Below are positions 20,781 to 62,531 of a stretch of DNA of 64,000 bases, piece after piece. The stretch covers positions 1 to 64,000 of the forward strand of contig JAAOMT010000566.1 in assembly GCA_016748015.1 (NCBI GenBank), read 5' to 3'. Origin of the DNA: Geosiphon pyriformis uo1. Its lineage: Eukaryota > Fungi > Glomeromycota. The notes under the pieces are model-generated. The model saw only the letters and a list, made by a program, of their open reading frames with translations, had not been told where the DNA came from and searched no databases. The position numbers were made by a program, and so were the translations under genes. Every line of letters starts with the position of its first letter. Position 1 is the first letter of the stretch.

Positions 20781-21146
20781 TATGAATTTGGTGATTCAGA
20801 TATTCGAAATCAGGGGGCTGTTGTTCAAAAATTGTGGGATATAAGAGCTGATGGATGCTGGTATTTCTTATTTCAAAATTGTCTTCAAAATAAGCTTGAT
20901 CAAAATAATAGATGGTATAAGCTGTGTAGGTTTCAGCTAAATGCTTGTTTAGAAACCAGTTCCAAAAGTCTTAAAATTGTTTACTGAATTGTTTTTCAAC
21001 AGGGAAACAGATCAAGCAGGAGGGCAGAAGATTGAGTTCAATAAACTCTAGGTCATTTCTGTTGTGTGCTGCAAAGTGTTTTTCTGATTGCTGTGGCAAG
21101 TATGAATAATCACCCATACAATGAGAAAATAAGTGAATTTTGACAA

Positions 21147-21163
21147 CCTCACAGAGAGCACTA
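21147..21163 (-). promoter_or_regulatory. Putative primer-binding site (TAGTGCTCTCTGTGAGG, likely from TGGTGC...)
   Basis: Lies 6 nt internal to the 5' LTR and resembles the complement of an elongator tRNA-Met 3' end. Confidence 0.55.
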
Positions 21164-21169
21164 CTTTTA

Positions 21170-21918
21170 TGTTATGGGTTGGAGTAACAAGCTAACGGAT
21201 AACAAAAAAGAACAGAATTGTAGGGTGATGGAAATAATCAAAGGGGAATTCAACTTTAAAGAGCAAATTGAATGAGTATGGATTCAATGTGCAAGATTAG
21301 TCTCATAAAATATCTCAGTTGCTATTCTTTTCAAAGATAACTGGGGAATCTGAAGGTAGAGGGATAGTCCATACTGTCAAAAATTGATCACCACTGGTAT
21401 AATTCTATGTCTTATGTCAGCACTCTTAGAATTCAATATCAGATATCAACTTGTGCTTTTCAGTCATGTTTATTCAATTAATCTTTAAATGCTACAATTA
21501 TATACGTCAAGAAAAGGCCAACAAGTAATTTTTTATTTTTAAGATATTCAGATACTTGAAGGTAGGGAAAGGGAAATTAGCGATAAGTGAAGGATTGAGA
21601 TGAAAGTTGTTATTTTATTTATTCTTGATTATTCAGATGCTTGTTATTACATGCTTTTCTACAACTAAGAGATTCATCACTTATATAGCTGTCAAAAGTG
21701 GTCAATAATTAGATTAATAATCAGGTCAAAGATCAGGTCAATAATCAGGTCATTGATCAGGTCATTGATCAGGTCAATGATCAAGTCAATGGTCAGGTCA
21801 ACAGTCAGGTCATTGATTAGGTCAATGATTACTTTCTAAAAATTGTGTGGCTAATCATATGACATTAGTGGCTAATACATGTGATAATTAATAAGAAGTA
21901 TAGATTTCAACCATAACA
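21170..21918 (-). repeat. 5' LTR of the Gypsy element
   Basis: TGTTATGG...CCATAACA perfect terminal inverted ends; direct repeat of 14103-14827. Confidence 0.95.
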
Positions 21919-27800: not shown

Positions 27801-29540
27801 GTCAAAACACCTTCCTACTCATAAGGTTTGGGAATCATTGAGACCCATGCTTCTTTCTAAGGGCTGGACACCAATTCACTAGACAAACAAGAGTTCAAGA
27901 GCACCAACAACAAATCTAAAACTGACCTATTACAATGTTTCCAAAGCTTATTTGAAATACCTGACAAACCAGCTGCTTTACCATCCGGAAGATCAGAAAC
28001 CACCCCCAAGGAATTCATCATACTCAATTGAACACATGACACCAGAAAAAGCTCTATCAAAAACATACTCTAGCAGCCGATATTGGAGGTGCCAATCATC
28101 TGAGACATCATCAACCACTCGACGCTTTCTAGTTCAACCTTCCATGATTTCATCTACCTTTGATTTGACAGATTCAGGCTCCAAAACCAACTCATCTCCC
28201 ACAACCAGATGATCTAAGACCACCTTACAAAAGAGATGCTCCAAAACACTCCTAATAGTGTGACCTTTGTCTAGTTCAAAACTCTCCATCCTCTTATCAA
28301 TAGCCTGCTTGATCAAAGATTCTTCAGCTCGTCTGGACTCCAACAACTTAGAAGCACGGTACAACTTTCTTGCTTTGGCCAGTGCAGAATGAATGTGATT
28401 AAAACCAGAACCTGAAAGGAACAGGGACTTTACCTCTGACGCACCAGAAGAATCAAGCTTATCCCAAGTCTCCAACAAAGAAGCAAAATCCCCACCAGAA
28501 ACCAAGTGAGAATCCCTAACCAGCTTAGACACCAGCAGCTCCAGATAATGTAACCTGAACGAAACCTTATTAAAAACACTATCATAACTCTTGAACCACT
28601 TTTTCTTGAATGTCCCACCAGTAGAAAGCACCACAACTTTACGAACAATGTCCCACATAACATCCAGATAAGAAAACTGTTTAGCCACAACAAACTCATC
28701 CAAGAACATAACAGCATTTGCAGCTGTAGCATTCCTGATTTCCGACCACTTAATCTCACTGGTATTTTTAACATCATACTTCCAACGATCCCTATTGGCT
28801 TGCTTGTGCATTGAGTTCAGCTGAACATCGAGCAGGCCACCCAGTCTTACAGAAACATAAACAGCCTTGTGATCGGTATCAAAATATTCCTCAACACCAT
28901 CCACACCACAATCCACCACTGCACCAACCAAATTAGAAGAAACAAACACATAGTCAATAGTCTTAGTAATACCACAAAAATTGCACCAAGTAGGTGATTT
29001 CACAAAAGAGCTCCCCCCCAGAGAGTTAACCAAACCCAAATCAGAACATTTCTTGAAACTGGCACATCTGTGTGAATCATCCTCATTAAAATCACCACCA
29101 AGAATAACAAAGGAGGACTCATTAACGGCTTTAGCAATGAGAGAGTTGATCTCACCAGCCTGAGAAAACCAAGTTACTACTGACACACCAACATAGATCC
29201 CCAAAATAGACACTGAGAGTTTATTTCTGAACAACAATTTGATAGATAGGAGCTGACCAAACACTTCAGAAATCTTGTAGACATGCTTTGCTAAAGAAAA
29301 ATTCATAACGATTAACACCCCAGCACCCGAAGAACCAAAATTCAGACCAGAAGTAAAAACCCGAACACTATCAAATTTGTTGACCAACCACGGATGAACA
29401 TTCCCTTTAAGCTTTGACTCAGTGAAAATAGAAACTAAATTGCCCATATTCTTATGCCAACGAATAACATCATCTTGCTTCGCAGGATTGTTCAACCCAC
29501 GAACATTACACATAGCAATTTTCTACACCAGACCACTCAT
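24860..29540 (-). pseudogene. LINE-B ORF2 (APE endonuclease, RT, RNase H, C-terminal CCHC), interrupted by stops
   Basis: CNVRGLN, ESKL, LGGDFNE, IDYV, TDHKAV (APE); QGEVFSS, FVDNM (RT); YMDGSL, AELQ, SDSQSALD, VKSHSGVSGN (RNase H); CLYCGEVKMSDHGFSC. Confidence 0.92.
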
Positions 29541-31336
29541 TGAGAAAGAGGTAGAGGAAGAGCACTACCTGCCAAAGCCAAACCATCTAGGCGCGCCGAT
29601 AGGCTCATGACTGAAGCAGAGAGACCTTCCAACATGTTTTCCAATTTCACAACCTCAGGTGAGGCAGTCGAACCTGTAACAGCAGCAGTCTTGTCACTAG
29701 TAGCATCATCCGAACTCACTCTCATCACTATATCCTCCCCTTGATTCTGTGATGAAGGGGTCACTGGCAGCTGACATCCAGGACTAGGCTGGGAAACTGC
29801 CAGCATGAATAAGTTCAACCTCTTAGCCAACTTACCAATTTGTCCCGCGAGGCTGACAAGACTGCTTTCAATATTTTTCAAATGGTCTTCCAATTTACCA
29901 CTAACAATCGGGAGAGGTTTACCATAAGATACAGAACCAGATTGAGCTAAACCACTAAATGATGCTAATGGAAGTGGTTTACCAACCACGGAGGCCCAGA
30001 TTTTTCCACCAAAAGCCAAAGGGCGGGAAATGGGAGCAGATTTTTTTTCATATATCTTAGCCAGATGGAGCTGATCCTGAGCTGAGAGAGGAGCTCTCTT
30101 GCTCCTAGGACTTGAGGACACACCAGCACTACAACAAGTGAGAGAAGTATGACCGGAATTTCTGCAAATTGAGCACAGTGCAGTGGTCAAATGAGACCAA
30201 CAGAGACCAACACCTTTTATAACAGGAGTGTTTGCCATTGCCTGAACAAGACTACCCTCAGAATTGAAGCACACAGTGGCACAGTATGCCCGGACATAAC
30301 TGACAGAGCTGCATTCAATAACACATGTTTTCCTATCAACCAAACCAATGAAGTTCCAAAGATCATGAGTGGTGGTATCCATAGGAAGAGTGTAAAGCAA
30401 AGCCCTGAACTCATCTCTGGCATCCCACATTTGTTTGTCAATATCGGCCCGGGCCACACACACTGCATCTTTCCCAATAAGGACAGACTACTTAGCCGCC
30501 AAGAGATCAGCCTGAATTTGATTTTCCAATTTGATAATTGCCTTTTGCCATAGATCCACCAACTGCATTTTAATCGACTTAATAAGTCCAAATTCAGAAA
30601 TGGCTGCACACACTGTCTCAATGGAAGTTCCCACAGGGATTTTTTTCAACACAATTGCCCGATTCATACGATTGTTGATGGGGCACTTAAGATTGGTGTT
30701 TACCACAACACCACGATCATTTGCCAATTGAGCAGCCACTATCATCGCCTTTTCAGAAGTAAAAGACACCTGGATGATTCCACCAAATTTTGAGGGAGCA
30801 GAGACTCCCCCAAAACCATTTACATCTGAGAAAATTTTTCTGACAAAGTTCAATTTCTCCTGAGATGATTTTCCAGCAACAGCCATGAGATCAATATCTA
30901 AAACAAAGAACTTGCGAACAGGCACTTGAACAGATGGTTTGATAGGCAAAGGGGGTGGAAGAAGGAAGGAATCATCTAACACGTCATTGTCTACATCAAC
31001 AGTACCATAATCAATTACACCCAGAGGCTTCCCTAATACTTTTTTGGTCTTTACACACAAATTCTTAGGCGTTTAATCAGGATTCCCTCCTGTGAAAGCA
31101 CCATTCTCACCATAGTCAACACTGGTTTCCTCAACCAAGCACTCCTTTTCCATGTCAATACTCTCAGATTCAGTAGTGTCACCCACCTCAGAATCCCATG
31201 AACAATTACCAAGAGCTTTATAAACAACCTTACTATTATTCACACTCTCTGCCAATACACCACTCTTTCTCTTCTTCCTCGATACAACCGTCTTAAAACC
31301 ACTCTCAGAACCAGAAACTTTGGTAGTCTTCTTCAT
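29537..31336 (-). pseudogene. LINE-B ORF1 (gag-like, RRM-like segment plus CCHC knuckle), two in-frame stops
   Basis: Fragments 31073-31336, 30488-31060 and 29537-30463 share one frame. CSICRNSGHTSLTC knuckle; C-terminal coiled-coil-like segment. Confidence 0.85.
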
Positions 31337-33164
31337 AACAGCAATAACAGAGCCAACAGTAGCCTCGTAATCGAAAAATGGTTTTGATTTATTGTACTGA
31401 ATGGTTAAAAAACTTCTCTCGAAAAAACTTTAGACTCTTTTTTGGGAATTTTGGACAAAGAAGAGAAAAAAGTTTTACTTTTTGTTTATTTGAGTTGTTA
31501 TTAAATAAAAAAATATTGATATAAATTAAAAAAAACAAAAAAACTTCTTTTTACAGAAAATATGCTTTTAGAAAAATTTTGGAGATAAAAGGGAAAGAAG
31601 TTTTTTAAGTATTATATTTATACTTTAAAAACTATTTATATTGTTAAACTTATGATAAAATGATTAATTTTGTGCCAATTATTTTTTGTAATTATTTTGT
31701 ATTAAAAGTTAACTTTTTTGTAGAAATTTTTCTATAGTATTTTTTTAACTATAAAATCTCAATAATTTATAATAAATTAAAAAAAAATAGAAAAAAAAAA
31801 TATGATTTTAATAATAATTAGAAATAATTTATTGCATAAATTCTACTTAGATTTAAATAAGAAATTAATTAAACTATTAAAATTTGTAGTTAGTTAATTT
31901 TAAAGTATTAATTTTAAATATTTTAAAATTTTAAAATATTTAAGAATTTTTGGAGGGTTTTTAAAAAAATATTTTTATTTTTTTTGTTTGATTTGTAATT
32001 TATTATCTAATTTTAAAATTATAAAATGTTAAGATATATTTTTTTAAAAAGAAAAGCTATTTTTTTATATATTTTTGAGTAATATTTATTCAAGTTTTAA
32101 CACTTTTTTCTTTGTAATTATTTTTTTGAATTTTTTAAAACTAATTATAAATTTCAGTAAACTCTTTATATTTTAGTAAATAATTGTAAAATTCGTGAAT
32201 TTTTGCATATTTCGACCAATTTTTACTGTTATAAAGTTCGAATTTAGTTATATTGTATACTTGTATAATTTGAATTATTAATTGAAATATAAATGATCAA
32301 TAATTTCATAAAATAATAATAAAATAATTAATAATAAAATATAATTTAATTAATATATAATAATAAATAATAATAAGAATTATAAAAGTAATATTATGCT
32401 AATTTTTATTTACTTTTAGTAACAATGTGTTGCAAATAGATTGATTTAACAATTTTTTATATTAATTAATATTTTTATTTAATATAAAAACTTAAAATAT
32501 TTTATATAATTTAATAAAATCTTTTTTAAACAACTTATTTTTAAAAAATACAAAATTTTTTTATATGTAATAAAATTATTATAATTATTTTTATATAAAT
32601 AATTTTATATATTAATTTTATTATTTTTAAATTTTTTATAATTTTTTATTTAAGTTTAAATTTTATTTATTAATTAAAAATTAACTTAATTATAATAAAT
32701 AACAAATATATATTTTATTTATAATATATATTTAACTAAGACTTAAAATTTTGTTTGTTATTTTTAAAATTAATTTTATTAGACAATTTTAAATAAAAAT
32801 TTAAATTTTATGTTTTAAAAATAATATTAATAAATATTAACACAATACACTAAAATAAATAAAACTTAATATTTTAACTTTCACAAATATATATGTAACA
32901 ATAAAATATTATTTACTTTTTTCTAAACAAATTTTTAATTACATATAATATTAATGTAAATTTGTTTAAATAAGCAGTTATTATTTCTATTATAAAACAA
33001 ATATCCATAATTTATATATAAACAAAAAAAANNNNNNNNNNNNNNNNNNNNNNNNNNNNNNNNNNNNNNNNNNNNNNNNNNNNNNNNNNNNNNNNNNNNN
33101 NNNNNNNNNNNNNNNNNNNNNNNNNNNNNNNNNNNNNNNNNNNNNNNNNNNNNNNNNNNNNNNN

Positions 33165-35179
33165 TTTACTTATAAAGTCCTTTCCATCATCAGAAGACAC
33201 CGTATTAAGCCGTTCTAATAACTTGCCTAATTGATACATGTCCGAAAGAGTTGTGTAGGTATTATTCTCATCACACGTGCCATCATCCCAGTCTGTCAAT
33301 AAGCTGTCGAATTTTTCGTTTATTTTACCTCCATGCTCGAAATCAATAAGAACATATTCGTAGCCTTGAGAATTATTCGAATCGTAAATAATATTCGATG
33401 AACGAATGTCGCGATGGACGAAATCTTTTTCATGAAGTGTCTTCAGTCCAGTTAGCAAACTGCGCGTCATCACTCGTGTTGTTTCCTCGTTTTCCGGTGA
33501 GCGTTCAAGGCCACGTGTCTTCAGTTTAACTGTATATCTCCCTGGACCTTTCCGATCGGCTTTAAAGGATGGTGCTTTGAAGATCTGAACGAGTCCGTGA
33601 TGACCTTTGGCAAGCTCGTACATGTCCTTTAATGTATCAACACGTTTGCAGTCCTTCTCTAAGCCATAGAGTTCACTCTCCGGAACAACTTTCTTAACAT
33701 GGTCTTCAAAGAAAGTAATTGTAGAATGTCCGAGGTCCAGTGACTTACCGAGAGGGATTACTTTAGCAGGGAAGGCATTCTTTGTGATCATGGTTTTAAG
33801 GATACGAACAATATTGATGCATATCTTGACAGATGTGTATCGAGCTTTGAGATCATACAGGTAAAGTTCTGTGGACAGTGGAACCAAAGTCTTGCTGGGA
33901 CCATCAATTGCATAAAAGCACATAATGTCCTTTGCTACAGCAAAACAAATTAAAAATTGAATATTCCCGAAATATAATGGATCGAGCTTGCTAAACTTGG
34001 ATATGAGCTCTTCTTTGGCAGTTTCAAGATCGATTCGTGCAGCCTTCTCTTCATTTTTTATCACTACTACATCTTTAACATATCCAAGAAGGTCAGGTCT
34101 AGTATTTTTTATTGTCGCTGGATTGCTTTTTGATTTCGTTGTATATCTCCTTAGAAAACAAAGTGTAAAATTAATGTTAGACATGGAAACAAAAACTAAT
34201 AAACACCAAGAACAGCATACAAAATGAAAACATACCTCTCATTCGCGTTACGGAAAAATTCGATTTGAAAATCAGAGTTACTGCAAAGTAATTCCAGAGG
34301 AAATGTGGTTAATCTATCCACGGCCCCAGCCAGCTGTATTTCGGTTTTAATTTGGGTAAACCTCGTCTCAGAGAGGGCAGCCTTGATCACAATTGCTAAT
34401 TCACTCGCCCTATCTATTTCATCATAATAGATACAGTCATCAAGTTCTCGAAACTGGCATTTGTCAAAATAAGATAATATTGTCAATTATGAATAGATTA
34501 AGAACAGCTAATATGAAAATCAAGGTCATACTTTTCCTAAGTCCGAGTATAAACACACGGGAAGCTTTGCAAGAAGAGGCGTATTAATGAGGTCCACCAG
34601 CTGGTCAGCATGAGTTGGCATAATATCAAATGGCTGAATGAGGTTTTCACATAGAAACTTAGTCTTGTCGCGCTCTATTGTTAAAATTGTTAAAACTGGG
34701 GAGACTATCAACATTAACGTATAAATCTGTGTTAAAATGTACAATACCGCTGCGTGGTCTTTTTGGAGGACGCTCGAGTTCTGCAAGTGAAACAACATTC
34801 AAGAACGTTGAAGTTGAGAGTGCAACACTCATGAGTCAGTCATTACCCAGTCATAAACTCTGTCCCCAACCTTCAAGTCACAAGTCACAAAGTCGTTACC
34901 TATCTTAGTTATTTCCATCAAAGAATTTTGTAGTTTTTGCACCTGCAACTCCCATTTATCTCTACTCGTTTTTAGCTCTTTCTTCACTCCTTCTAGCATC
35001 TCTAATGCTCGCTTCTCCGTTTCAGTGAGCTCTTCTTCTTCTACATACAACTTGTCCTCCAACACCTTCAGTTTCTGCCCACGTTTCCCCTCTTCAAAAT
35101 TCTTCAATGCAGCCTTTGCTTCATTCAGCTGCTCCTTCGCATCTTTCAACTCGTTCTCAATTTTTTCGACAGTCGCCAT
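33165..35179 (-). CDS. Crinkler-type protein: N-terminal coiled coil, PD-(D/E)xK nuclease-like domain and C-terminal protein kinase; 3' end lost in gap
   Basis: Predicted exons 35179-34900, 34780-34748, 34674-34532, 34453-34236 and 34149-33165 are joined by GT-AG introns in consistent phase. Motifs RPDLLG...KNEEK, HRDIRSSNII, LIDFEH, SDMYQLG. Higher GC than flanks with CpGs retained. Confidence 0.8.
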
Positions 35180-47607: not shown

Positions 47608-49262
47608 CTAATTATTATTATTATTATTATTATTTTCATAAATTTTCTGAGCTAAAAAATTTCTGAATTTACTCATTGATTCGCAATTGTTCATTTCAAT
47701 CCCAAAATAAGGCCCATTATGAAATAATTTGTTCGGAACTTCGTTTATTGATTGACCAGCATTACACTCCTAAAGTAAAAAAAAAGAAAAAAAGAAAAAA
47801 AAAAAACTTATTTTTTTCAATGCCTTTGCTAAAAATTTCTTAATTCAATATAAATTATTACTAACCACATTCTCTTCAGGATACTGCGAATTAAACCATT
47901 CTTCACTTTGACTTGACATCAAAGGAAAAGAATTACAATCCCAATACGTATTTGAGTCATCAGGACAATTACAATTACTCAATGGTTCAATCCAAATTTC
48001 AGTACCAAAATGTCTCCACCCCATTGAAGACGAAGGAGAGTGTGGCACATGATCATTTCCATGGGTGAAGCGACGATGAAGAATTAATTGGTTGAAACTA
48101 TCCCTAAAGTGCTCGTTTCCAACTCTCGGAGCCCCAAAAGTATAAATACTCTGCCCTATACCGCTTAAATTAATATCCGGCCAAATATTCATATTTAAAA
48201 TTTTATATCTTTCAAGTAACCACCTCACTGCAGCAATGCAAGCATATGCTTATATATATATATATAATAGTTAAAAAAAGATTTAATGTTAAAAAAATAA
48301 TTTTATAATTTTTACTTCAAACTTTAAAATAAAAGACATTTAAGAAACTAACCTCCACAAATACCATGTCCCGTAAATACAATATTAAGGTTTTGAGTTA
48401 GCTTTGTAAATTTCATTAAAAATAATTTAATACTTTGAAGTAAATTAGGAAATAATAAATCCAAATCTTTCAATAATTGTGAGTCTGCACGAAATTTTTC
48501 GTCAAACTTTGGAATATTTTTAAAATGAAGTGGCACTTGTTTTGAATTTCTAGAAGCCCATTCTTCTTTCGTTAATTTCTAATATAAATAAAGAAACATT
48601 GTTATTTCGAAATTTTAATTGATTTAAAATATTAAAGGAGTTAAAGATAATTACTGATCCTCCAAACGCTATTATTAAAAGGCCATCAGTTTCTGAATCT
48701 AAGTAAAACTGAACCGCCACTAATAAATAGTATTTTGAAAGCTATTAGTTTTTGTTTTTTTTAAAAAAAAATTTAAATTTCAAAATAATTTCTTTTTCTG
48801 AATTTAAAAACCTTTAATTTGTAAACCAGGCACTCTTGAGCCAACGTTATTTAGACCGAGACAGTCAAATGCATTTACTATGAATGCAATATACGAGGAA
48901 ATTTTTAGCTCACTATTATCAAATAAAATTCGGCTCTTAGGTTGTGATTGTGAGCGTTTTTTGGTTTTATTAATTTTTTGTGAGATATTGATTTGATTTA
49001 TCCAATTAATCATTGTAGGAGAGGTGTAATTTATATCTGCTTTTTTAAACTTTTGAATTACTTTAGAGGCTATCCAGATACTGCTGTGGTTTTCATGAAT
49101 CAAAAAATAAAAAATTAATGCTATAAAAATTGCAGTAATAATCTTAAATTTTCTTGAAAAATCGACCTTGAATCGTATTTGATTATTAAAAGAACCCATT
49201 TTATTGATTTTCAAGATGGATATAATAGAGTTTTTATGGAATTTTTTTTCAAGATGCACCAA
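47608..49262 (-). CDS. Lipase class 3-like protein L1 (multi-exon; nucleophile elbow TGHGICGA, no catalytic Ser)
   Basis: N-terminal hydrophobic segment; YTFGAPRVGN, DHVPH, HFGTEIWI; last exon ECNAG...HNGPYFG, stop at 47608. Start may be the ATG at 49199. Confidence 0.85.
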
Positions 49263-50174
49263 TTATTAAAAAAAGATCTATAGATCGAGCTTAATTGTTT
49301 GTTTAAAACATCTCATTTAAACAAAATAAAGTAATAAATAATATAATTTTAATATCTATCACACTATATCTTGTATCCCCAAAGAAGTTTTCAAATTTTT
49401 ACAAATTTATAAACAAAATTATTTAATTTTATTTTAATTTGAAAATAAGATTTTATTTCAGGTTTATTTAATAAATACATTAAATGAGATATTTAATTGA
49501 AATATTAATTAATGAGAAAAAGTATTTCACTTCATTGATCTTTTAGAAAAAATATTTTTAAATAATTGCTATAGTTTTTGGTTTTAGACTTTAATCATCT
49601 AAAGTGAAACATTTCAATATTTTATGTAGAAAAAGTTTTAAAATTCTAACTTGACTTCGACTTTATTTATTAAATAAAAGAAATCGAAAGCTTTACGGAA
49701 GAATAATCAGAATTACAGCGCTCCAAGATTCCCCGATGGTTTCATTGTGTATCATTGTAAATGAATACAGTAGAAAAAATATTAAAAATTTAATTTCAAT
49801 AAGAAGTTAAATCATTATATAAAACCAACTATTTGGAAATGAGAACTTTTCATATTTAATAATTATTAAAATCCGGCAAGCTTTAAAACTTAAATTTGGA
49901 AAAAAATCTATATATTACTTTTAAATTGATCTGAAAAACCTCTTTTTTTTTAATCATTCTGGAAAATGAATATTTGATTTAGCTTTTAATAATTTCAAAA
50001 AGTTGAAAGTTTTTTGTCAACAAATAAATCTAATGATCTCGACTATTATAAATAATAATAATAATAATAATAATAATGAAATTTAAATTTGATATTAAAA
50101 ATAAAAAAATTTAAAAAAATATATTTTAAATTAAATAATAATAATAATAATAATTTAATGGTATAATTCTTTTA

Positions 50175-50206
<32 letters not shown>

Positions 50207-50834
50207 CTTGTGTACAAAATAAGTTTAAAAAATATTGTGTATTTTATGTTAAAAAATGAAAAATGAAAAAAAGATATTATATAAAACAAAAAGTAAAAAT
50301 ATTATAATTTTATGTTTGAATATAAATTTTATTTATTATTTTATTATTTTATTATTTTATTATTCCTTTAAATTCTTGAATAAAATTGATAAACTTGTAC
50401 AAAGATTACTTTTATCAATATATATATTTTAATTTATATAATATAATTATTTCAAAAAAATTTACTTTGTAAAAAAAAGTTTTGTCGGTCATAAATTTTG
50501 TTTTGAATCTACCTGTGTTTATGTTCTTGTCTTTTTGATAAAACTTTTTAAACTTTATTTATAAATAGATAGTTATAAATAGTTTCTATCAGCCTATCCT
50601 ATTTTCCAAAAACGATTTTCTTTCATCATTAATTTTTTACCGCTAAAAAGATCAATAAATAATTCTAACCAATCTCATCAAAACGATATATCAAACCCCC
50701 AATTTTTCAGTGTAACATGTTAACTTGGGAATCTGTATTTTTTTTAAAATTTTAATAAACTTTACCCCTTTATATTAATATAAACATATATTCATTATAT
50801 CTACACGCGATGACTAAACTCTTAACCCAAGTTT

Positions 50835-50840
50835 AATAAT

Positions 50841-50876
<36 letters not shown>

Positions 50877-50879
50877 AAC

Positions 50880-50917
<38 letters not shown>
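50835..50917 (+). repeat. Compound (AAC)n(AAT)n microsatellite just upstream of L2
   Basis: Direct reading. Confidence 0.9.
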
Positions 50918-50919
<2 letters not shown>

Positions 50920-50935
50920 GTTGCTTAATTACATT

Positions 50936-52448
50936 ATGAGTTCATCAATCAAAAATCACCACACATGCTCAATGAAGAGTTCTTCTTTTATATTCCTTTT
51001 CAATCTGCTTGCAATACTTGTGCTTTCTCAAGATAGTTTGAGAAATTTAAATTTAACCAATCTGGACGGAAATTCTAGGTATTTTTTTTAAAAAAAAGGT
51101 GATATAAAACTGTTTTCGAGACTTATGAAAAAAAAAAAATAATAATTTCATCAATTTCCATAATAGACTTCTTTCTGATAAAAAAGAATCTATCACCGTT
51201 AAGAATAAGACGAAGCCGAACGCGAGCGACGACGACGACGAAAGGTCTGAAGACCAAGAATTTCTAGAAAAAACCTACCACCAAAAAATTGAACAGTCTA
51301 GAGCAAAAAATCAAATCATTTTTCAGTCAAATCAAAAAAGAAATTCCATAATTCAACCTATCTCAAAAATTAGGAAAGATATATCCATCCTGAAATATCT
51401 AACATATGCGAGACACAACAAAAGGCTCTATTGTTCACCAAAACGAGTAGTTAAATTTATAGAAAATTTGGATCTCACAGGTTTTTTTTTTCACCATATA
51501 AATTTTTTTTTTCAGTTCCTAAAACTTTATTATCACTAAAATTAAATGAATAATTTGGCTCTTCTTTAGGGAGAGTACATAAAACATTTAATAATCTTAT
51601 ATTTTCCCTGAGAGCTCCTGAAATACGTTACTTAAGTACGTGGTCTAAGGAACGAGAAAATATACTTGTACCTTATTTGGAAGTTAAGGACGCAAGAGTG
51701 GATAAAAAATTTTACCAGGATTTTCAAATAGTCTCTCAGGAAATTCAGTCATACCTTTTAAAAATCATGAAAACTGGCAACCAGAGATATTTTATTTTAA
51801 CTGGACATCGATTAGCGGGCGGTCTGATGATTTATTTATTTATTTATTTCTTGAAATATTTGAGAATTAATGATTAAGATACTTCAAGTTTTTGTTCTTT
51901 CTTTTTTTCAAAAATACAGTTTATGCGATATTTACGGCACTAATGATGAAAAATATACCCTCTTCAATTAAAACATTTAATGTCTTCACTTGGGGATCTC
52001 CGCGGTTTGGGAATGCCGCATTTGCAAATCATGTCAATTCTGTTTTAAATGTCCGTCGAGTAACTTTGATGGATGACCAAATCACAAGGTTCCCAATTTA
52101 TACCAGCACATCAGATTTAACTTCGTATCTACATCCTGGGGAAGAAATATGGATAAAGAAAAAATGTGATTGTGATAATTTCGAATATTTTAATTGTCCG
52201 GGGGTGAAGGAGAAAGATGAGTTGAAAGAAAGTCCGGTATGCTATATATTTATAAGAGATTTATAAAAATTTTGGCTTTTTTTGTTGTTGTTAAACCTTG
52301 ATTAAAAAAATTAAAAATTTATAAATATTTTTGATTTTTACAGTTTTGTAATAATTCTCAACCAGAGCATGACCCAGATTTTACATATGATGGTCCCTAT
52401 TTTGGTTTTATATTTGGTCATCAATACCAAATTTGTGAAGAAGTCTAA
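50936..52448 (+). CDS. Lipase class 3-like protein L2 (multi-exon; elbow TGHRLAGV, no catalytic Ser)
   Basis: ATG at 50936 with signal-like FIFLFNLLAILVLS. Open exon ~51167-51480. FTWGSPRFGN, DDQITRFP, HPGEEIWI; last exon ...DGPYFG...EEV stop. Confidence 0.85.
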
Positions 52449-52742
52449 TATATATATATATATATGTATATATTAGATACCTAAATTTTAAATTCACTAT
52501 TTGAAAATATAAATATTTATTAAAACAACTGTCTTTTACTTAAGAAATCAGATATTCTAAAAAAATATGCATGAAAAAATTTTCTGATTAATTATCATCT
52601 CTAGTATTTTTCTGTCTTGTTATTGAATTATATAAATTTAATGCAAAAAAAAAATTTCAAAATTTTAATTTATCTTTTATTACATTATTCAAAGCATATT
52701 TCTTTTTAATAAACTAAAAATTAAGAATTCTCAAAACTTGTT

Positions 52743-53680
52743 CTAATTTAGATATCTTTTTTTGAAACAATTTTTAAACATTGTTCGCCCAAAATATGGA
52801 CCAAAATGCTCATGATCAAGATGGGATTCTCTATAAATTTTGATTGAATCTTGAAAATTTATTCCTGGATATATGGCTTTATGCAAATGATTTCTTGCAT
52901 TGCAATCCTAAACAAAGTTTTGAAATTTTTTTAATTTTAAAATTATTAAATAGGAAATGAATTATAAATTTATCGATTTTTAAAATTACCTCATGTTCAT
53001 GTAATGTATGCGTATGATAACATATATAAATCTTTGAATTTGGACAATCACATGAAGGAGGTTCTATCCAAAACTCTTTTTGAGAATGTCTGTATTGAAT
53101 TTTGGTTAATTTTGTTGTTGTTGTTGTTGTTGTTGTTATTTCTTTAGGCATATTTATTCCACGAAAAAATCCTTCAATTGGAAAATTAGGTATCCAATCA
53201 TCACCATAAGTCACCCTCCAAACTTTATGTAACATATGTTGAACGTAATGAACGAATATTTCATTTCCAATTCTTGGCTGGCCGAAAGTAATCACGCTTA
53301 CGGTGGCTTCCGTATTATTTCTTTTATATTCAAGTGCAGCAAATACAGCTAAAGCTAAAAAAATTTAAAAGAGGTTAACAGTGAAAATTTTTAAATTTTT
53401 ATTGTAAAAAAAAATTCGCAAATTCTTTTTTACCGGCTCCAGTACCAAAGCCTGTAAATAAATATTCATTCAAATTATTTTCCCTTTCATACTTTTCAAA
53501 TTTCGTCGAGAAAAGTTCTCCCCGAGATTGCCAAAATTTATAAAGAAATCTGGAGACTAACCCATATTGTACAGGTGGGTAAGGAATAAAATCCCATACT
53601 AATCCGCCTATACCAAATTTTAAATAATCAATGTTATCTTCGACAGCACTAAAAGCGATTATACTGCTTGAAAACTTCAC

Positions 53681-53722
<42 letters not shown>

Positions 53723-54259
53723 AATAAATGAAAAAGTTTAGCTTCAAGTAATTTTTTCGAAAAAACAAGAATAATTTTTTTACTAACCCCAAGCCCTAGC
53801 AGCTGAACGACGATTCGCGAAAAAATCATTTGTCGCTTTTTTGATAACTTGTTGGCAAGTTGCCTCCCAGGCAAATTTTGCACTTTCTGATAGTTGACGC
53901 AAAACATTTTCATCTTCAACAACCATTTTTACCATGGCAAAATTTGTATCATAATCTCCATCACCATCACCACCACCATCACCATCACCACCATCACCAT
54001 TATCACCATCAATATCACCACCTTCAATATCTGCTATTGTAGCCACTGTATTATTAAGAGTGAATTGGAAATTTCTTTTTTGATTTGATTGAATTATAAA
54101 ATAATTTTGTTTGATGTGAGATTTATTATTATGGAATGACTGTGAACGAAAAATGATCTCCGTAATAGATGGACTTTTATTATGAAAATAAAAAAGAAAA
54201 ATTAGAGGCAACAAGGAAAAGAATGCGTGCGGCCAAATAATTTTCACAATATAAAACAT
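52743..54259 (-). CDS. Lipase class 3-like protein L3 (multi-exon; elbow TGFGTGAA, no catalytic Ser)
   Basis: Signal-like N-terminus and Gly/Asp repeat; ITFGQPRIGN, DDWIPNFP, HSQKEFWI; last exon DCNAR...HFGPYFG, stop at 52743. Confidence 0.85.
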
Positions 54260-54660
54260 TCTAATTTTTGAAAAAGTTCCGCGTAGTTTGAGTTGCTTCA
54301 AGTAAAAAATATCTTGACCATAATTTAGCTCAAGAGATTTGATTTTAAAATTTTTTTTTTCCTAATTAGGATATTCTTATCAAGATTTTTTTATAAGGCT
54401 GCGGAAAAAATTTTTGAATTTTTTCTCAAAATAAATATTTACATAATTTCTAAATACATGGAAAATCTCGGTCTTTGAAATTCTTCCGATTAATAAATAA
54501 ATATATAAATATTTTTCTGAAATACATTGAGTTATCGCATCATGATCGTCCTAAATAAAAAATTAGCGTTATTTTCCGCATGATAAAGAATTTTAAAAAA
54601 GTGTTTACTTCAAAAATTTAGAATATATAAACACTGACATCAGTGTAAACAATTCAAATT

Positions 54661-54689
54661 CCTCCCCTCCCCTCCCCTCCCCTCCCTCC
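54661..54689 (+). repeat. (CCTCC)n tract in the L3/L4 divergent intergenic region
   Basis: cctcccctcccctcccctcccctccctcc ~40 bp upstream of the L4 ATG, downstream of a TATATAAA at ~54624. Confidence 0.8.
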
Positions 54690-54730
54690 ACTTTTAACTT
54701 GAAAATTTTTTAAAAGGTGAAGAAAGAAGA

Positions 54731-54855
54731 ATGATTTCTCAGAGAAAACACCTAATGACTAAGGAATTCTACGCGAGGCTTAAAAAACTTTCTCTCAAAA
54801 GATTTATTTCTATTATTCTTTTTTTTCTTCTTTTATTCTTTTTATCCCATCTAAG

Positions 54856-54891
<36 letters not shown>

Positions 54892-56316
54892 GTTAGATCA
54901 AAATCTTTTTGATTATCCCCTAGAAAATATAAAAAAATTTGATTTCTTTCATCACTCTGAGCCAATTTTAAAACTCAAAAAAAATTTAACAAAAGATATT
55001 GCAAAATTCGAAATTTCACTTTTCCAAGAAAGAAATTCTTTTGGCCCCATTTTTATAAAAGATTTAGTCGATGATCAGAATCTTTTGGAATTATTTTCTA
55101 CCAAAGCAAATTTTGCCAGGATATCACATTGTTCCCTAAAACAGTTACTACTATCAGGAAAAGGTGAGAATCGGACTTCTTGCGTTGAAATATAGATTAT
55201 AATATTTTAATTCATTTGTAAATTTTTTCAAAACAGTTTTCTCTGATGCTTTGGTTTCCATTATGGAACACGATCATTCAAAATTGACTCTAAGTTTTGC
55301 ACATATTAATAACAATAATTTTGAAAACACGCGATCCCGCATATCGCAGATTTTTAGAGTCGTTCAATTCCCAGATGTAACTGGTGCTTGGGTAGCAGGC
55401 ATATACCTCCGCTTATGGAAAATTTATTTTCAGAAAAAATTTTTGGGGGGGCTTCAAAAATTTTTGTCAAATTCACTGAAGAAATATGATTATTCTGATT
55501 TTTATTTCACTGGATTTGGCCAAAGTTGTCGTAAGTTTTGAGTTTATTCATTAAAAGAATAAATTAAAATTACTTTGGACTTTCGAATTTAATGTTTTTT
55601 GAATTAGCATATGCAATTTTTGCTGCCCTGAAATTTTTGGAAATCTATAAACCTTCAAAAAAACCTATCGTTGTTACTTTTGGCCAACCGAGAATGGGAA
55701 ATGAAGTTTTTACCGCTTTTGCTCAAACCAAACTTGAGGCAAGAAATTTTCCATTTGATTTTTGTTCCCAATTTGTTTCTGAAGATTTTGCTAATAATGT
55801 CTTTAATTGAAATCGAAAAACAAGATTTTTCGTGTTACACTTATGGATGATTGGTTACCAGATATCCCCATACAAGGAAGAAGATATTTTTCAAAATGGG
55901 ATGATACAAACAAAAGGCCAACGAGTTTAGTGCTTCCTGTAAAAGAAAGATATACACATTTCAAACCTGAATTTTGGATTGAAATTAATTGTGAATGTTC
56001 ACAAGACATCTACCCAACTGTGTACAAATGCTTGAACACCCATTCATTCGATGAACATCCGGTATGAATTTGATATTTAAATGTTAATAGAAAATCTCTA
56101 AAATATTTTTGCCCAAATTCCATTTTTTCTCAACCTCTTTAGGAATGCAATGCTCGTAAACATGAGATCAACATTTCACATGGCTTTCTGCATGAAAATA
56201 AATCCGATGAATTTCATTTTGGTCCGTATTTTGGACAAAACATGAATGATTGTCAAAATTTAAATAGAACTATGATTAAAGGTATAATCTTACAAAAAAA
56301 AGTACCAACCTTTTAG
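54731..56316 (+). CDS. Lipase class 3-like protein L4 (multi-exon; elbow TGFGQSCP, canonical Ser position is Gly)
   Basis: N-terminal TM/poly-Leu; VTFGQPRMGN, DDWLPDIP, HFKPEFWI; last exon ECNAR...HFGPYFG, stop at 56316. Confidence 0.85.
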
Positions 56317-57156: not shown

Positions 57157-58078
57157 AGAGAGTTTGCGCTACAATGATTTCTTTGTAAATTTACTTCTAG
57201 CAGTCCCAAATGGAATTACTTGTAGAACAGAGTTTGCGTTACAATGATTTTCCTTGTAAATTTATTTCTGCAATTGGCTAGTGATGTCACGTAATTTTAA
57301 TGCAAACGCGTATCAAATCTCACCATTTGGAGTCCGAGAACTTGACTTTTGACAGCCTGCGAATGGCTACACTTCTGCTACTACTTCATAAGCGTCAACA
57401 ACAACTGGCTATAACAATGAAGACAATATTTGAACCTGAACGTCCATTGATTCCCAATACGAGACTTGATCTAAATGCACTTGATGAGGGAACGTGTGTA
57501 GCATTTTTCCGGTATGAAGATTAAAGTTTTATATGACTAATGTGACAATAATGTTTTGAAAAGTATATTGAAGACAACGGCTTATAGATTCAACAAAACA
57601 CAGATAGAACAACTTGTTGAACACTTCCGAATTCCATCAGTTATCATTACAGAAAATCGTTTGCGGGCAACTGGAGTTGATTCATTATGCATGTTACTTC
57701 GGCGAATGGCTTATCCAAAACCGACATGTTGATACTATTCACCTTTTTGGTCGACCAACTGATGAAATTTCTCGTTTCTGCCAACAAGTTATTTGCGACG
57801 TGACAGGTAGTAGATAGTATAGTGAATGCTTATTCACTAACAATAAAAATGACCCACAGTCTTAAAATAGGTTCGAGAATATCTCTCTTAGGTTTGGACA
57901 TATTGTAAGACATACCTTGTCAGCTTTTGGGCTACAGATTGCAAAAAATTAGATAACAAAATCTCTTACTTGTAGAGGAGATCTACAAAGAATTCCGGTT
58001 TTAAATTTCTTTGTACAAGCCACAAATTTGTGGCTACATGTAAATTTACAAAGAAAATCATTGTAGCGCAAACTCTCT
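57157..58078 (+). mobile_element. Non-autonomous PIF/Harbinger-superfamily DNA transposon (internal deletion derivative)
   Basis: ~38-bp TIRs AGAGAGTTTGCGCTACAATGATTT(T)CTTTGTAAATTTAC and 3-bp TSD ATT. Internal fragment FFR|F...LCMLLRRMAYP / LFGRPTDEISR resembles the N-terminal HTH part of Harbinger-type DDE transposases. No DDE core. Confidence 0.85.
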
Positions 58079-58750
58079 ATTATATCAAATTTTTTAAGTC
58101 ATTATTAAAAATGATACTTTTTTTATATATGTTTTAGTATTTTATATTATATATAATATTGAAATTGTAATAAATTTACTTTTTTAACGCAATGTAGATT
58201 AAAACACTTGACTTTAATACAAAGAAAAAAAATTATTTATATATAATTTTAGTAATTATAATGATCGTGGTCAGAGATTGTGATTTCTAGTAAAATTTAA
58301 TAAAAAGTTCTTTTGAATTATTGTGTTTAACAGCTAATTATCAAGCTTCTGAGATCAGGAATAGCATTTTCTTACAAAATCCATTATTCAATAGTAAATA
58401 GCCAAAAATCTGAGATTTTTGATGCAAGATTTCTATCATTTAATTTCCTCAGTTAATAATTATTTTTAGTTAAATTTATAAATTAATTTCTTTCTTTGAC
58501 TTGAGGGCAAAAGAAATTTTAGTTTTTAAAAAATGAACGAGCCTACAACTTTATCAAAAAATAATATTTTTTATTTTGAACAGCAAATCTGAAAATTCTA
58601 ATATGATAGAAGTCTATTATAAGAATTGAAAGCTAAACCATTTATAAAGACATTTTTTATCTATTTGAGATTTAATTTTGATATTTTCATAACTTATATT
58701 AAAAATATTTTATTTAAAGACTAATCAGATAGAATGCATCGCAATAATAC

Positions 58751-59847
58751 CTAATAGAGATTACTATTATCGTTAAAGCCTCCGTTAATAGTACCAGAGG
58801 AAAAGTGACCATTTTGCTGGTTACCAATGGATCTCTTATCGTTGAAACCTCCATTAATTGTCCCAGACGAAAACTGACCGTTTTGTTGATTACCGATGGA
58901 TCTTTTATCATTGAAACCTCCGTTAATTGTACCAGACGAAAAGTCACCATTTTGTTGGTTACCTATGGATCTCTTATCGTTGAAACCTCCATTAATTGTC
59001 CCAGACGAAAACTGACCATTTTGTTGATTACCGATGGATCTCTTAGTGTTGAAACCTCCATTAATTGTCCCAGACGAAAACTGACCGTTTTGTTGATTAC
59101 CGATGGATCTTTTATCATTGAAACCTCCGTTAATAGTACCAGACGAAAACTGACCATTTTGTTGATTACCGATGGATCTTTTATCATTGAAACCTCCGTT
59201 AATTGTACCAGACGAAAAGTCACCATTTTGTTGGTTACCTATGGATCTCTTATCGTTGAAACCTCCATTAATTGTCCCAGACGAAAACTGACCATTTTGT
59301 TGATTACCGATGGATCTCTTAGTGTTGAAACCTCCATTAATTGTCCCAGACGAAAACTGACCGTTTTGTTGATTACCGATGGATCTTTTATGTTGAAACC
59401 TCCATTAATTGTCCCAGACGAAAAGTCACCATTTTGTTGGTTACCTATGGATCTCTTATCGTTGAAACCTCCATTAATTGTACCAGACGAAAACTGACCA
59501 TTTTGCTGGTTACCAATGGATCTCTTATTGTTGAAACCTCCATTAATTGTCCCAGACGAAAAGTCACCATTTTGCTGGTTTCCAATGGATCTTTTATCAT
59601 TGAAACCTCCATTAATAGTACCAGACGAAAAATCACCATTTTGCTGGTTACCAATTGCATTGGAATTATATCCTAATCTATCACCATTATGGTTGAAGCC
59701 TCCGTTAATAGTACCATGGGAAAACTGGCCGTTGTTCTGATTACCGATACCCCTCTTTGCATTTAATGCAGCTGCACTAGACGTTGAAAATGTAGACAAG
59801 AGAAAAATAGCTGTGCAAATTTGTGTAATAAAAATTTTACCAGTCAT
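58751..59847 (-). CDS. Kex2-processed repeat peptide precursor, copy A (14 core units; one 1-nt frameshift at ~59390)
   Basis: Signal peptide MTGKIFITQICTAIFLLSTFSTSSA, then AKR, then 69-nt repeats SIGNQQNG(Q/D)FSSGTINGGFNxKR, ending FNDNSNLY-stop if the single-base deletion is corrected. Confidence 0.85.
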
Positions 59848-60820
59848 TTTAATCAATCTTAGTGTTTTTAAGGCTTTTAAAAAAATGTATTGGAAAGATT
59901 TCTTTTAGATGTTTTAGAGTGTGAATGAAGAGATNNNNNNNNNNNNNNNNNNNNATTGGGAGCATCAAAAATTAGATATGCTTGGCTAAACAAGTTTCAC
60001 CATTCATGATAACATGAACTAATAGTCCTCAAAATATTTCAGAGTTTTCCCTAACCTGGTAAAAAAGATAGAAATAACGCGAAAACTGTTTCTTTAATTC
60101 TGTATAATTAACTTGACTTAAACGACATTTCAAATTTAAAAACCTATATTTTAGTTTTTACTTGGAAATGTTTAAAATATTTATCTACGGAGGGTGGCTA
60201 TAAGTTACCAAACAATTAAATAACCAATAAAGAAATATAAATTAAAAACTTACACCAATAAACTATTTAATTAATTTATTACACATTATTAAACGAATTT
60301 TTTGTTCTCGTACATTGAATTAAGAAAAAATGGTGTTTACTACAATTGGAAAATTTTTAGTTTAGTCTAATACTTATTTTTGATTTTCCCAATAAACTGT
60401 TCGTTTCGTTTCCTATTATGGTCTGTAGTGTTCTTTCTTTCAAATATAATCTATTTATAAAAAACTTGAATCAATAGCACTTTGCTACAGTATAACTAAA
60501 TGAGTATATTTTTAAATTGGAGAGATACATAATTATATGCGTATTTTGCGTTTTACCAGGATCTATCGAGCACCAACCTATTCTTTCTCATCATGAAAAT
60601 TTCAAAAAAAGGCTAGTGCTTGGTCATTCTTGCGGCCTAAATGAAACCTTTTCGATAAAGGTACAAGCCATCTTTTTCAAGGTTGATTTCAATGGTAACC
60701 GCATGCTTAGCGAAAACTTTGTTACCATAGGAGACCTAAATGAAATACCGAGAAGAAAAACAGTCATATTTAAATTGAATTTGTTTCAAAATTAAACCGA
60801 GCATGAGAATGGGAAAATGG

Positions 60821-60828
60821 TATAAAAG
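60821..60828 (+). promoter_or_regulatory. Putative TATA box for precursor copy B
   Basis: TATAAAAG ~115 bp upstream of the ATG at 60936. Confidence 0.45.
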
Positions 60829-60935
60829 AAGAGGTTCGCCTGTTCAATATCTCTTCATTCACACTCTAAAACATCTAAAAGAAATCTTTCTAATACATTT
60901 TTTTAAAAGCCTTAAAAACACTAAGATTGATTAAA

Positions 60936-61664
60936 ATGACTGGTAAAATTTTTATTACACAAATTTGCACAGCTATCTTTCTCTTGTCTACATTTTCAAC
61001 ATCTAGTGCAGCTGTATTAAATGCAAAGAGAGCTATCGGTAATCAGAACAACGGCCAGTTTTCCCATGGTACTATTAACGGAGGCTTCAACAATAATAGT
61101 GATAGATTAGGATATAATTCCAAAGCAATTGGTAACCAGCAAAACGGTCAGTTTTCGTCTGGGACAATTAATGGAGGTTTCAATGATAAGAGATCCATCG
61201 GTAACCAGCAAAATGGTCAGTTTTCGTCTGGTACAATAAATGGAGGTTTCAATGATAAGAGATCCATCGGTAACCAGCAAAATGGTGACTTTTCATCTGG
61301 TACAATTAATGGAGGTTTCAACGGTAAGAGATCCATCGGTAACCAGCAAAATGGTGACTTTTCATCTGGTACAATTAATGGAGGTTTCAATGATAAGAGA
61401 TCCATCGGTAACCAGCAAAATGGTGACTTTTCGTCTGGTACAATTAATGGAGGCTTCAACACTAAGAGTGACTTTTCATCTGGGACTATTAATGGAGGTT
61501 TCAACGAAAAGAGATCCATCGGTAACCAGCAAAATGGTGACTTTTCGTCTGGTACAATTAATGGAGGTTTCAACGATAAGAGATCCATAGGTAATCAACA
61601 AAATGGTCAGTTTTCGTCTGGTACAATTAATGGAGGCTTCAACCATAATGGTAATCTCTATTAG
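60936..61664 (+). CDS. Kex2-processed repeat peptide precursor, copy B (intact, 242 aa; 8 full core units plus 1 truncated)
   Basis: Intronless ORF with signal peptide, KR-delimited 23-aa repeats and C-terminus FNHNGNLY. Confidence 0.92.
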   Translation: MTGKIFITQICTAIFLLSTFSTSSAAVLNAKRAIGNQNNGQFSHGTINGGFNNNSDRLGYNSKAIGNQQNGQFSSGTINGGFNDKRSIGNQQNGQFSSGTINGGFNDKRSIGNQQNGDFSSGTINGGFNGKRSIGNQQNGDFSSGTINGGFNDKRSIGNQQNGDFSSGTINGGFNTKSDFSSGTINGGFNEKRSIGNQQNGDFSSGTINGGFNDKRSIGNQQNGQFSSGTINGGFNHNGNLY

Positions 61665-61907
61665 GTATTATTACGATGCATTCGGTTGTATTTTATCTGA
61701 TTAGTTTTTAAATAATATAATTTAGGAAAAGATCAAAATTAAATCTCAAATAGATAAAAAATGCCTTTATAAATAGTTTCGCTTTCAATTTTTATAATAG
61801 ACTTCTATCATATCAGATTTTAAATTTTGTTATTTGATACAAATAACGCTATTTTTTTTGGGTTTAAAAATTTTCAATCAGTTGCAANNNNNNNNNNNNN
61901 NNNNNNN

Positions 61908-62531
61908 AACCAGCAAAATGGTCAGTTTTCGTCTGGTACAATTAACGGAGGTTTCAATGATAAAAGATCCATCGGTAATCAACAAAACGGTCAGTTTTCG
62001 TCTGGGACAATTAATGGAGGTTTCAACAATAAGAGATCCATTGGTAACCAGCAAAATGGTCAGTTTTCGTCTGGTACAATTAATGGAGGTTTCAACGATA
62101 AGAGATCCATTGGTAACCAGCAAAATGGTCAGTTTTCGTCTGGTACAATTAATGGAGGTTTCAATGATAAAAGATCCATCGGTAATCAACAAAACGGTCA
62201 GTTTTCGTCTGGGACAATTAATGGAGGTTTCAATGATAAAAGATCCATCGGTAATCAACAAAATGGTCAGTTTTCGTCTGGGACAATTAATGGAGGTTTC
62301 AACACTAAGAGATCTATTGGTAACCAGCAAAATGGTCACTTTTCCTCTGGTACAATTAACGGAGGTTTCAATGATAAAAGATCCATCGGTAATCAACAAA
62401 ACGGTCAGTTTTCGTCTGGTACTATTAATGGAGGTTTCAACACTAAGAGATCCATCGGTAACCAGCAAAATGGTGATTTTTCGTCTGGTACTATTAACGG
62501 AGGCTTTAACGATAATAGTAATCTCTATTAG
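61908..62531 (+). CDS. Kex2-processed repeat peptide precursor, copy C (5' end lost in gap; 9 units visible)
   Basis: In-frame repeats from the gap edge to FNDNSNLY-stop. 3' flank is homologous to those of copies A and B. Confidence 0.85.
   Translation, partial: NQQNGQFSSGTINGGFNDKRSIGNQQNGQFSSGTINGGFNNKRSIGNQQNGQFSSGTINGGFNDKRSIGNQQNGQFSSGTINGGFNDKRSIGNQQNGQFSSGTINGGFNDKRSIGNQQNGQFSSGTINGGFNTKRSIGNQQNGHFSSGTINGGFNDKRSIGNQQNGQFSSGTINGGFNTKRSIGNQQNGDFSSGTINGGFNDNSNLY

Follow-up and report, generated by a model that had tools for sequence, protein, structure and literature searches.

The class 3 lipases of fungi, represented by those of Rhizomucor miehei (3tgl), Rhizopus (6a0w) and Thermomyces and by feruloyl esterase A of Aspergillus, are the enzymes closest to the genes described here, and plants hold alpha/beta-hydrolase folds with non-catalytic roles. 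One of these, the gibberellin receptor GID1, belongs to another hydrolase family and binds its ligand under a lid. The available sections of 10.1101/2021.12.15.472806 describe GID1 as lacking the triad His with the Ser kept, the oxyanion hole as needed for hydrolysis, SAG101 as lacking a conserved triad, and tomato EDS1 as requiring triad residues but not the Ser. In animals, the scabies SMIPP-S, with 16 paralogs, and the insect non-catalytic clip serine protease homologs are expanded, enzyme-derived families with a mutated triad that act in host or immune interactions (excerpts of PMC4930577 and PMC10369957). Here we analyse four adjacent genes, L1 to L4, at positions 47608-56316 of a 64,000-nucleotide stretch of the fungus Geosiphon pyriformis (contig JAAOMT010000566.1; hereafter the window). 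Judged by their sequences, all four belong, as divergent members, to a very large lipase-fold family that lacks the catalytic Ser and is kept intact by selection, and we propose, at a probability of roughly 0.55, that its members bind lipids or acylated ligands but do not cleave them.

Like the fungal class 3 lipases, this family has the whole fold (Z 25-26) with its lid, the TFGxPRxGN motif, the triad Asp, a YFG-x5-Cys end and a likely pre-pro layout. Unlike them, it lacks the nucleophile Ser in 171 of 182 domains, has mostly lost the oxyanion Ser/Thr and the His of VHxGF, carries an extra CxC loop and an HxGPYFG spacing, and, within a single genome, reaches copy numbers in the range of hundreds. 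It shares its fold class (Z 16-18) with plant EDS1, PAD4 and SAG101, whose role is non-hydrolytic; those three proteins signal inside the cell and carry an EP domain at the C-terminus, whereas the family is single-domain, likely secreted and massively duplicated, no EP-type Pfam family was found in 29 long relatives, and L1-L4 end 3-24 residues past their last Cys. GID1, which the initial annotation had offered as a precedent, is an imperfect model, having lost its His and not its Ser (10.1101/2021.12.15.472806, available sections), the opposite of the triad loss in L1, L3 and L4. In its way of working the family would come closest to the expanded pseudoenzyme families, among them SMIPP-S and the insect clip homologs, though it differs from SMIPP-S, an animal family with a trypsin fold, in having a lipase fold, in belonging to a fungal mutualist and in having about ten times more members.

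The genes and their key sites are as follows (aa, amino acids; nt, nucleotides; n, the nucleophile position).

47608..49199, minus strand: L1, pseudo-lipase gene, 407 aa, 5 exons (49199-48812, 48719-48655, 48578-48353, 48248-47866, 47769-47608); nucleophile site Gly223, Asp292, His371; aa 20-34 hydrophobic; KR at aa 81-82
48363..48365, minus strand: L1 nucleophile codon GGT (Gly for Ser), within GHGICG at 48371-48354
50936..52448, plus strand: L2, pseudo-lipase gene, 376 aa, 5 exons (50936-51078, 51167-51480, 51570-51821, 51920-52236, 52344-52448); nucleophile site Arg233, Asp289; Tyr357 at the presumed catalytic His site
51809..51811, plus strand: L2 nucleophile codon CGA (Arg for Ser), within GHRLAG at 51803-51820
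51822..51919, plus strand: L2 intron 3, phase 1, 98 nt, immediately after the elbow; absent from a contig of run X2
52237..52343, plus strand: L2 intron 4, GT..AG, 107 nt; absent from a contig of run X3
52743..54259, minus strand: L3, pseudo-lipase gene, 415 aa, 4 exons (54259-53788, 53679-53434, 53354-52990, 52907-52743); nucleophile site Gly236, Asp292, His395; Gly/Asp-rich linker and poly-Thr loop
53444..53446, minus strand: L3 nucleophile codon GGT (Gly), within GFGTGA at 53452-53435
54731..56316, plus strand: L4, pseudo-lipase gene, 422 aa, 5 exons (54731-55163, 55237-55530, 55608-55738, 55825-56061, 56143-56316); nucleophile site Gly239, Asp295, His390; poly-Leu N-terminal anchor; start uncertain
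55518..55520, plus strand: L4 nucleophile codon GGC (Gly), within GFGQSC at 55512-55529, whose Ser stands at n+2
55739..55824, plus strand: predicted GC-AG intron of L4, 86 nt, required for an intact L4 frame; exon length matches paralogs

These models were rebuilt from three-frame translations and then spliced by coordinates. The initial annotation had described intact reading frames, and all four are indeed free of stops once spliced, L4 only with its predicted GC-AG intron; the introns otherwise follow GT-AG throughout, and, as also claimed, a phase-1 GT-AG intron lies right behind each of the four elbows. The paralogs are as divergent as had been said (27-29% pairwise identity among the spliced proteins), and the elbows GHGICG, GHRLAG, GFGTGA and GFGQSC lie where they had been placed, with codons (GGT, CGA, GGT and GGC) that encode no Ser. 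The register of this column is set by the family profile, which puts GH(g)iGG onto the GHSLGG of Thermomyces lipase. Two further motifs had been called common to all four genes, and here L2 departs from the others: its TFGxPRxGN motif reads TWGSPRFGN and its D-x-x-P acid loop reads D-Q-I-T, without the Pro. The triad Asp is present in each of L1-L4, aligned with the D of THTNDIVP in Thermomyces lipase, the residue before GPYFG is His in L1, L3 and L4 and Tyr in L2, and the oxyanion-hole motif F-R-G-S/T is absent from all four; L1 has the Ser of an FGGS near the oxyanion column, in an uncertain register. The coding sequences also hold microsatellites, namely poly-Leu in the L4 anchor (54731-54900), poly-Thr in the L3 loop beside the acid residue (53113-53140), a Gly/Asp repeat in the L3 linker (53960-54020) and poly-Asn at the L1 end.

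The loss of the canonical hydrolase machinery, which had been claimed for the window (Gly, Arg, Gly and Gly at the nucleophile site of L1 to L4), extends to the family at large. The columns were tallied over 192 family domains other than L1-L4 and three outgroup proteins. Where the nucleophile column was filled (182 domains), it held Gly in 137, Ala in 23, Ser in 11, Arg in 6, Asp in 4 and Phe in 1, while the triad Asp was kept in 182 of 184 domains and a His stood before GPYFG in 141 of 164. The oxyanion column, obtained with a deeper profile, held Ser or Thr in just 7 of 156 domains, with Pro in 48 and Lys in 26, and among the 138 domains with all four columns filled, Ser-Asp-His occurred in eight and Ser-Asp-His together with an oxyanion residue in none. 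Because both the Ser and the oxyanion residue are gone, no acyl-enzyme should be possible, and canonical lipase activity is very probably absent from the family. A small Ser-bearing group (P0115, P0123, P0127, P0129 and P0162), without an oxyanion Ser/Thr where that column is filled, supplies candidates for regained or residual activity. The His before GPYFG would be the catalytic His, paired with the Asp; sequence searches against solved structures did not settle its register. It appears to track the pocket, since it is kept in 108 of 119 Gly-type and in 0 of 5 Arg-type domains, and in the L2 type, with Arg in the pocket and the His gone, the pocket is likely closed or re-purposed.

A check of the exons by reads, suggested in the initial annotation, could be made in part, for L2 from exon 2 onward, where introns 3 and 4 are skipped in assembled contigs, likely reflecting transcription. 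Four public sequencing runs are listed, none recorded as RNA, and the DNA or RNA kind of those with spliced contigs is a guess. The X2 contig (407 nt, flanked by adapter) joins 51775-51820 directly to 51919-52235 without a single difference, thereby covering the L2 Arg codon and skipping intron 3, and a contig of X3, a different sample from a different study, skips intron 4. Both runs also contain a spliced L2 paralog with the elbow GHRLAGV, which shows three synonymous and no replacement changes relative to L2 at that place. The first 615 bases compared (51160-51774) have zero contig cover; this is the region in which the public gene model has its extra exon-2 intron. That model, the annotated G. 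pyriformis protein P0022, matches L2 exon 4 at 100% identity, has the same elbow and agrees with our model except for this one extra intron, which removes 43 aa from exon 2. The L2 elbow is thus not an assembly or splicing artefact, because a contig without differences runs through the Arg codon and across the junction where intron 3 was removed, and because the elbow of P0022 is identical. The spliced contigs likely, if not provably, derive from cDNA. Homolog searches with L1 and L3 exons returned no identical protein, and both genes seem to be absent from the public protein set.

In the structural comparison with the Rhizomucor miehei lipase, which had also been suggested, the AlphaFold model of P0022 (pLDDT 66) matched 3tgl with Z 25.9 and rmsd 2.6 over 238 aligned residues, and that of P0002 (63% identical to L1; pLDDT 89) with Z 26.3 and rmsd 2.5 over 245, the lipase being matched over its whole length by both. 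As modelled in these two proteins, the fold is the alpha/beta fold of Rhizomucor lipase with its lid; chains of the EDS1 family matched the same models in the lower range given above. Ser-to-Ala mutants of the lipase fold have been solved with ligand, 1gt6 with oleic acid and 2bjh with ferulic acid, according to the titles of these entries.

At least 162 family proteins were collected, a lower bound on the family size if those without a species name are also from Geosiphon. Three single-exon homolog searches returned 12, 9 and 2 proteins, all named G. pyriformis, and a profile search over 1.84 billion representatives, of which the best 150 matches were listed, gave 143 with E up to 1e-30; the profile search listed one protein per 50%-identity cluster, and all searches together came to 165 proteins, 162 of the family and 3 outgroup. 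Looking up 30 listed proteins yielded 27 from G. pyriformis and three from Paraphysoderma, Coemansia and a nematode, which are ordinary GHSLGG lipases and served as the outgroup. Every family protein with a known species name (50/50) is from G. pyriformis, and the family is likely confined to this species. A metagenome pattern scan with a 15-sequence alignment gave 96 pattern matches and 0 confirmed relatives, and the ESM Atlas returned generic Lipase_3 clusters only. One exon of each of L1-L4 passes Pfam Lipase_3 (PF01764) on its own, with 24.6-49.9 bits against a cut-off of 22, and 29 of 29 longer relatives match this family. Two or three lipase-like domains occur in 19 of 161 annotated proteins, for example in P0013 (L3, L4 and L3 types), P0026 (an L4 type and an L1-clade type), P0135 and P0044, which come from other loci, combine different subfamilies and may be either true tandem proteins or fused neighbouring genes; mixed-subfamily neighbours thus recur outside the window (P0013, P0026). 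Some family models are joined to kinase, Sel1 or methyltransferase domains, possibly as annotation joins.

The view of L1-L4 as a local cluster of four proved too narrow, as they come from different subfamilies of a genome-wide family. In the family trees, L1-L4 fall into four well-supported subfamilies, those of L3 and L4 being sisters. Tests of alternative topologies used 60 of 186 rows, with five long-branch rows left out and the nucleophile, His and oxyanion columns masked. A constraint holding the four together, as a local tandem origin would require, was rejected (p-AU 9e-5), and so was a history in which Ser was lost once and the Ser-bearing rows all group on the same side (p-AU 2e-8). 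A reading with four separate and recent losses of Ser was discarded as well, each gene having the elbow type of its nearest paralogs, and horizontal transfer is not suggested, given the spliceosomal introns and the fungal origin of the best structural matches. The Ser-bearing P0012, P0053 and P0106 are nested in supported Gly/Ala clades; with a root that is weak, resting on distant outgroups only, the simplest reading is that Ser gave way to Gly early and was later regained in some members.

Selection on the Ser-less genes was the other claim at stake, neutral evolution being what would have overturned it. Identity to paralogs of the same elbow type is 52-63% for L1 and L2 and 44-55% for L3 and L4, with L1 60-63% identical to P0001-P0004, and since each window gene has the elbow type of its paralogs, its frame has stayed open after the Ser was lost. 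When neutral evolution was simulated by substitutions only, under two mutation models and with 400 runs per gene, 0 of 400 runs remained stop-free down to nearest-paralog identity, for every gene and both models, and at half that distance at most 5 of 400 did. This excludes neutral decay over most of the period since each gene diverged from its nearest paralog, and says nothing against very recent decay of a single copy. Median pairwise core identity among 177 domains is 31%, and 26 columns are nonetheless conserved at 90% or more; L1-L4 retain 25, 25, 26 and 25 of these, so that their pattern is not a matter of chance. The claim that selection has kept the genes is borne out by both results.

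Each of L1-L4 begins with a hydrophobic stretch (hydropathy 2.97, 2.49, 1.91 and 3.25, respectively) and has 6-8 Cys and 4-5 sequons, and L1-L3 carry a KR in the linker. Across the family, 62 of 90 proteins have KR or RR 20-60 residues before the first conserved Cys of the mature domain, where shuffles would give 28.4, an enrichment that fits pro-protein processing. Trp is retained in its lid column in 112 of 162, and variability is highest in the loops that surround the groove, namely the lid, the loop following the acid residue and the pre-His loop.

Taken as a mechanism, the proposed binding of lipids or acylated ligands would have begun with one early Ser-to-Gly change, followed by birth-and-death expansion with scattered returns to Ser. 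The proteins would enter the secretory route through an N-terminal signal or anchor and have their pro-region cut off at KR, and their predicted place of action is the extracellular space or the compartment housing Nostoc. The lid-covered groove would still accept an acyl chain or a similar ligand, whose polar head the Asp-His pair next to the Gly cavity would grip without forming an acyl-enzyme, and the variable groove loops would amount to a repertoire of specificities. Such a repertoire could serve the capture of partner lipids in a fungus without fatty acid synthase, or the recognition of the cyanobacterial surface; none of the Glomeromycota genomes analysed yielded FAS1 or FAS2, and G. 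pyriformis lives with Nostoc (PMC11134847, in the text available). That the function concerns Nostoc at all we hold as a tentative idea, somewhat more doubtful than not. Still more speculative is the full scenario, in which one lipase gave rise to over 150 lipid-recognition proteins that do not cut. This set, the equivalent in a fungus of a variable family of receptors or lectins, would select, coat or milk the engulfed Nostoc and deliver the lipids of the cyanobacterium intact to a host that cannot make its own fatty acids.

Several points weigh against this account. The link between Arg and loss of the His comes down to three independent Arg origins on the tree (sign test, p 0.25, non-significant), and the distance from the His to YFG is one residue longer than in Rhizopus lipase. 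The lids are hydrophilic on average (mean hydropathy -0.92), and those of L3 and L4 have no Trp. The supposition that the proteins are secreted or membrane-anchored is supported by the hydrophobic N-termini of L1-L4 and by the KR enrichment, and fares worse among their relatives, of which only 28 of 161 (24 of the 81 with at least 330 aa) have an N-terminal hydrophobic stretch by a simple test; truncated gene models may account for the low count. In the L2 paralog contig, three codons upstream of GHRLAGV do have replacement changes, and, the kinds of the runs being guessed, a retrocopy could formally be the source of the spliced contigs. As to scope, 112 of the 165 proteins carry no species name, the profile was built from Ser-less proteins, which biases the best 150 matches toward such proteins, and relatives in other Glomeromycota or active Geosiphon lipases could lie below them. 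The family is linked to Nostoc by the organism alone.

Among other explanations, the genes might be a neutral by-product, transposon-driven duplicates decaying in a repeat-rich genome. The assembly is 64% repeats (PMC9453076, in the part available), the locus lies amid decayed retroelements near a telomere-type end, and some annotated members appear truncated; yet neutral decay does not reach stop-free frames at 52-63% nearest-paralog identity, the core and Cys pattern are invariant, the introns are retained, so the genes are not retrocopies, and spliced L2 contigs come from two studies, all of which makes this explanation highly improbable. Fainter still is the chance that an alternative nucleophile (the n+2 Cys of L1, or the n+2 Ser or n+3 Cys of L4) or RNA editing restores lipase activity. 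The initial annotation had named an alternative Ser in L4 as a possible refutation, and the n+2 Ser does recur in 4 of the 5 domains of the L4 clade, just as a single base separates Gly GGY from Ser AGY. The case is weak, however: the His is missing in 3 of those 5 domains, a Ser or Cys occurs anywhere from n-1 to n+3 in only 20 of 176 domains, the n+2 Cys of L1 is private among its close paralogs, and the Arg codon is unchanged in the spliced L2 contig.

Catalysis without Ser deserves more weight and is still improbable. Alpha/beta-hydrolase enzymes with a His-Asp dyad and no Ser nucleophile exist, and in the Ser-to-Gly cavity an Asp-His pair might activate water or a substrate hydroxyl for slow hydrolysis, acyl transfer or a lyase-type reaction, which would suit the retention of Asp across the family and of His in Gly-type domains despite about 31% identity, and a site dominated by Gly and not by a random residue. 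Against it, the oxyanion residue is randomised, the tree needs 17 changes for the loss of the His, unlike a catalytic residue, and L2, with neither Ser nor His, cannot operate in this way. It is unlikely, though less so, that these are protein-binding pseudoenzymes, acting as decoys for lipase inhibitors or as partners or regulators of Ser-bearing members or of host-surface proteins. Surface loops far more variable than the core, the multi-domain proteins and the recurring mixed-subfamily neighbours would fit such a role, for which SAG101 acting for EDS1, insect non-catalytic clip proteases and scabies SMIPP-S acting against complement are precedents (PMC4930577 and PMC10369957, in excerpt), and the Arg-plugged L2 type fits it best. 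The multi-domain proteins may, however, be fused gene models, and the pocket His and lid Trp retained in Gly-type members point to a pocket in use.

As for the rest of the window, three neighbouring genes at 58748-62531, one on the minus strand with a frame break and two on the plus strand, the last ending in an assembly gap, encode signal-peptide proteins with Gly/Asn-rich repeats of about 23 aa split by KR. They resemble GpRIC1-3, described as GN-rich proteins with possible Kex2 sites (PMC8786786, in the text available), and lie 2.4 kb from L4, so that two predicted secreted families adjoin. Positions 1-2300 hold telomere-type CCCTAA/CCCTAT repeats that decay inward, twice, flanking an N gap near 1005-1024, which puts the lipase-like genes about 47-56 kb from a telomere-type end. 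Open reading frame translations show nested decayed retroelements at 11800-31500, with LINE-like endonuclease, reverse transcriptase and RNase H frames and an LTR-type gag-pol-integrase set. A kinase-like open reading frame (33012-34238, minus strand; Pkinase, E 5.9e-9) runs into an assembly gap, and short broken frames at 57420-57830 (plus strand) look like a decayed transposase-type gene.

The genome paper, by Malar et al. in Curr Biol in 2021, is said to note a Lipase_3 expansion. The expansion itself is probably already known, and what is new is that it is almost wholly non-catalytic; to our knowledge, the family would rank among the largest pseudoenzyme expansions in any fungus. Literature searches, which did not extend to the genome paper and its supplements, found no paper on Geosiphon or Glomeromycota lipases that lack the Ser; a supplementary file of PMC9453076 contains no Lipase_3 count, and the portions available of PMC12574304, PMC10079182 and PMC9620820 hold nothing on this lipase-like family.

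Counts of domains would call these proteins lipases, and with about 94% of them Ser-less, the expansion does not mean extra capacity to digest fat. G. pyriformis is the only known fungus with nitrogen-fixing endosymbionts (PMC8786786, in the text available), and how it chooses Nostoc and obtains lipid is a question on which the family may bear. Its members are concrete candidates for a part in recognising the partner or capturing lipid, and the Ser-, Gly- and Arg-type paralogs provide natural internal controls.

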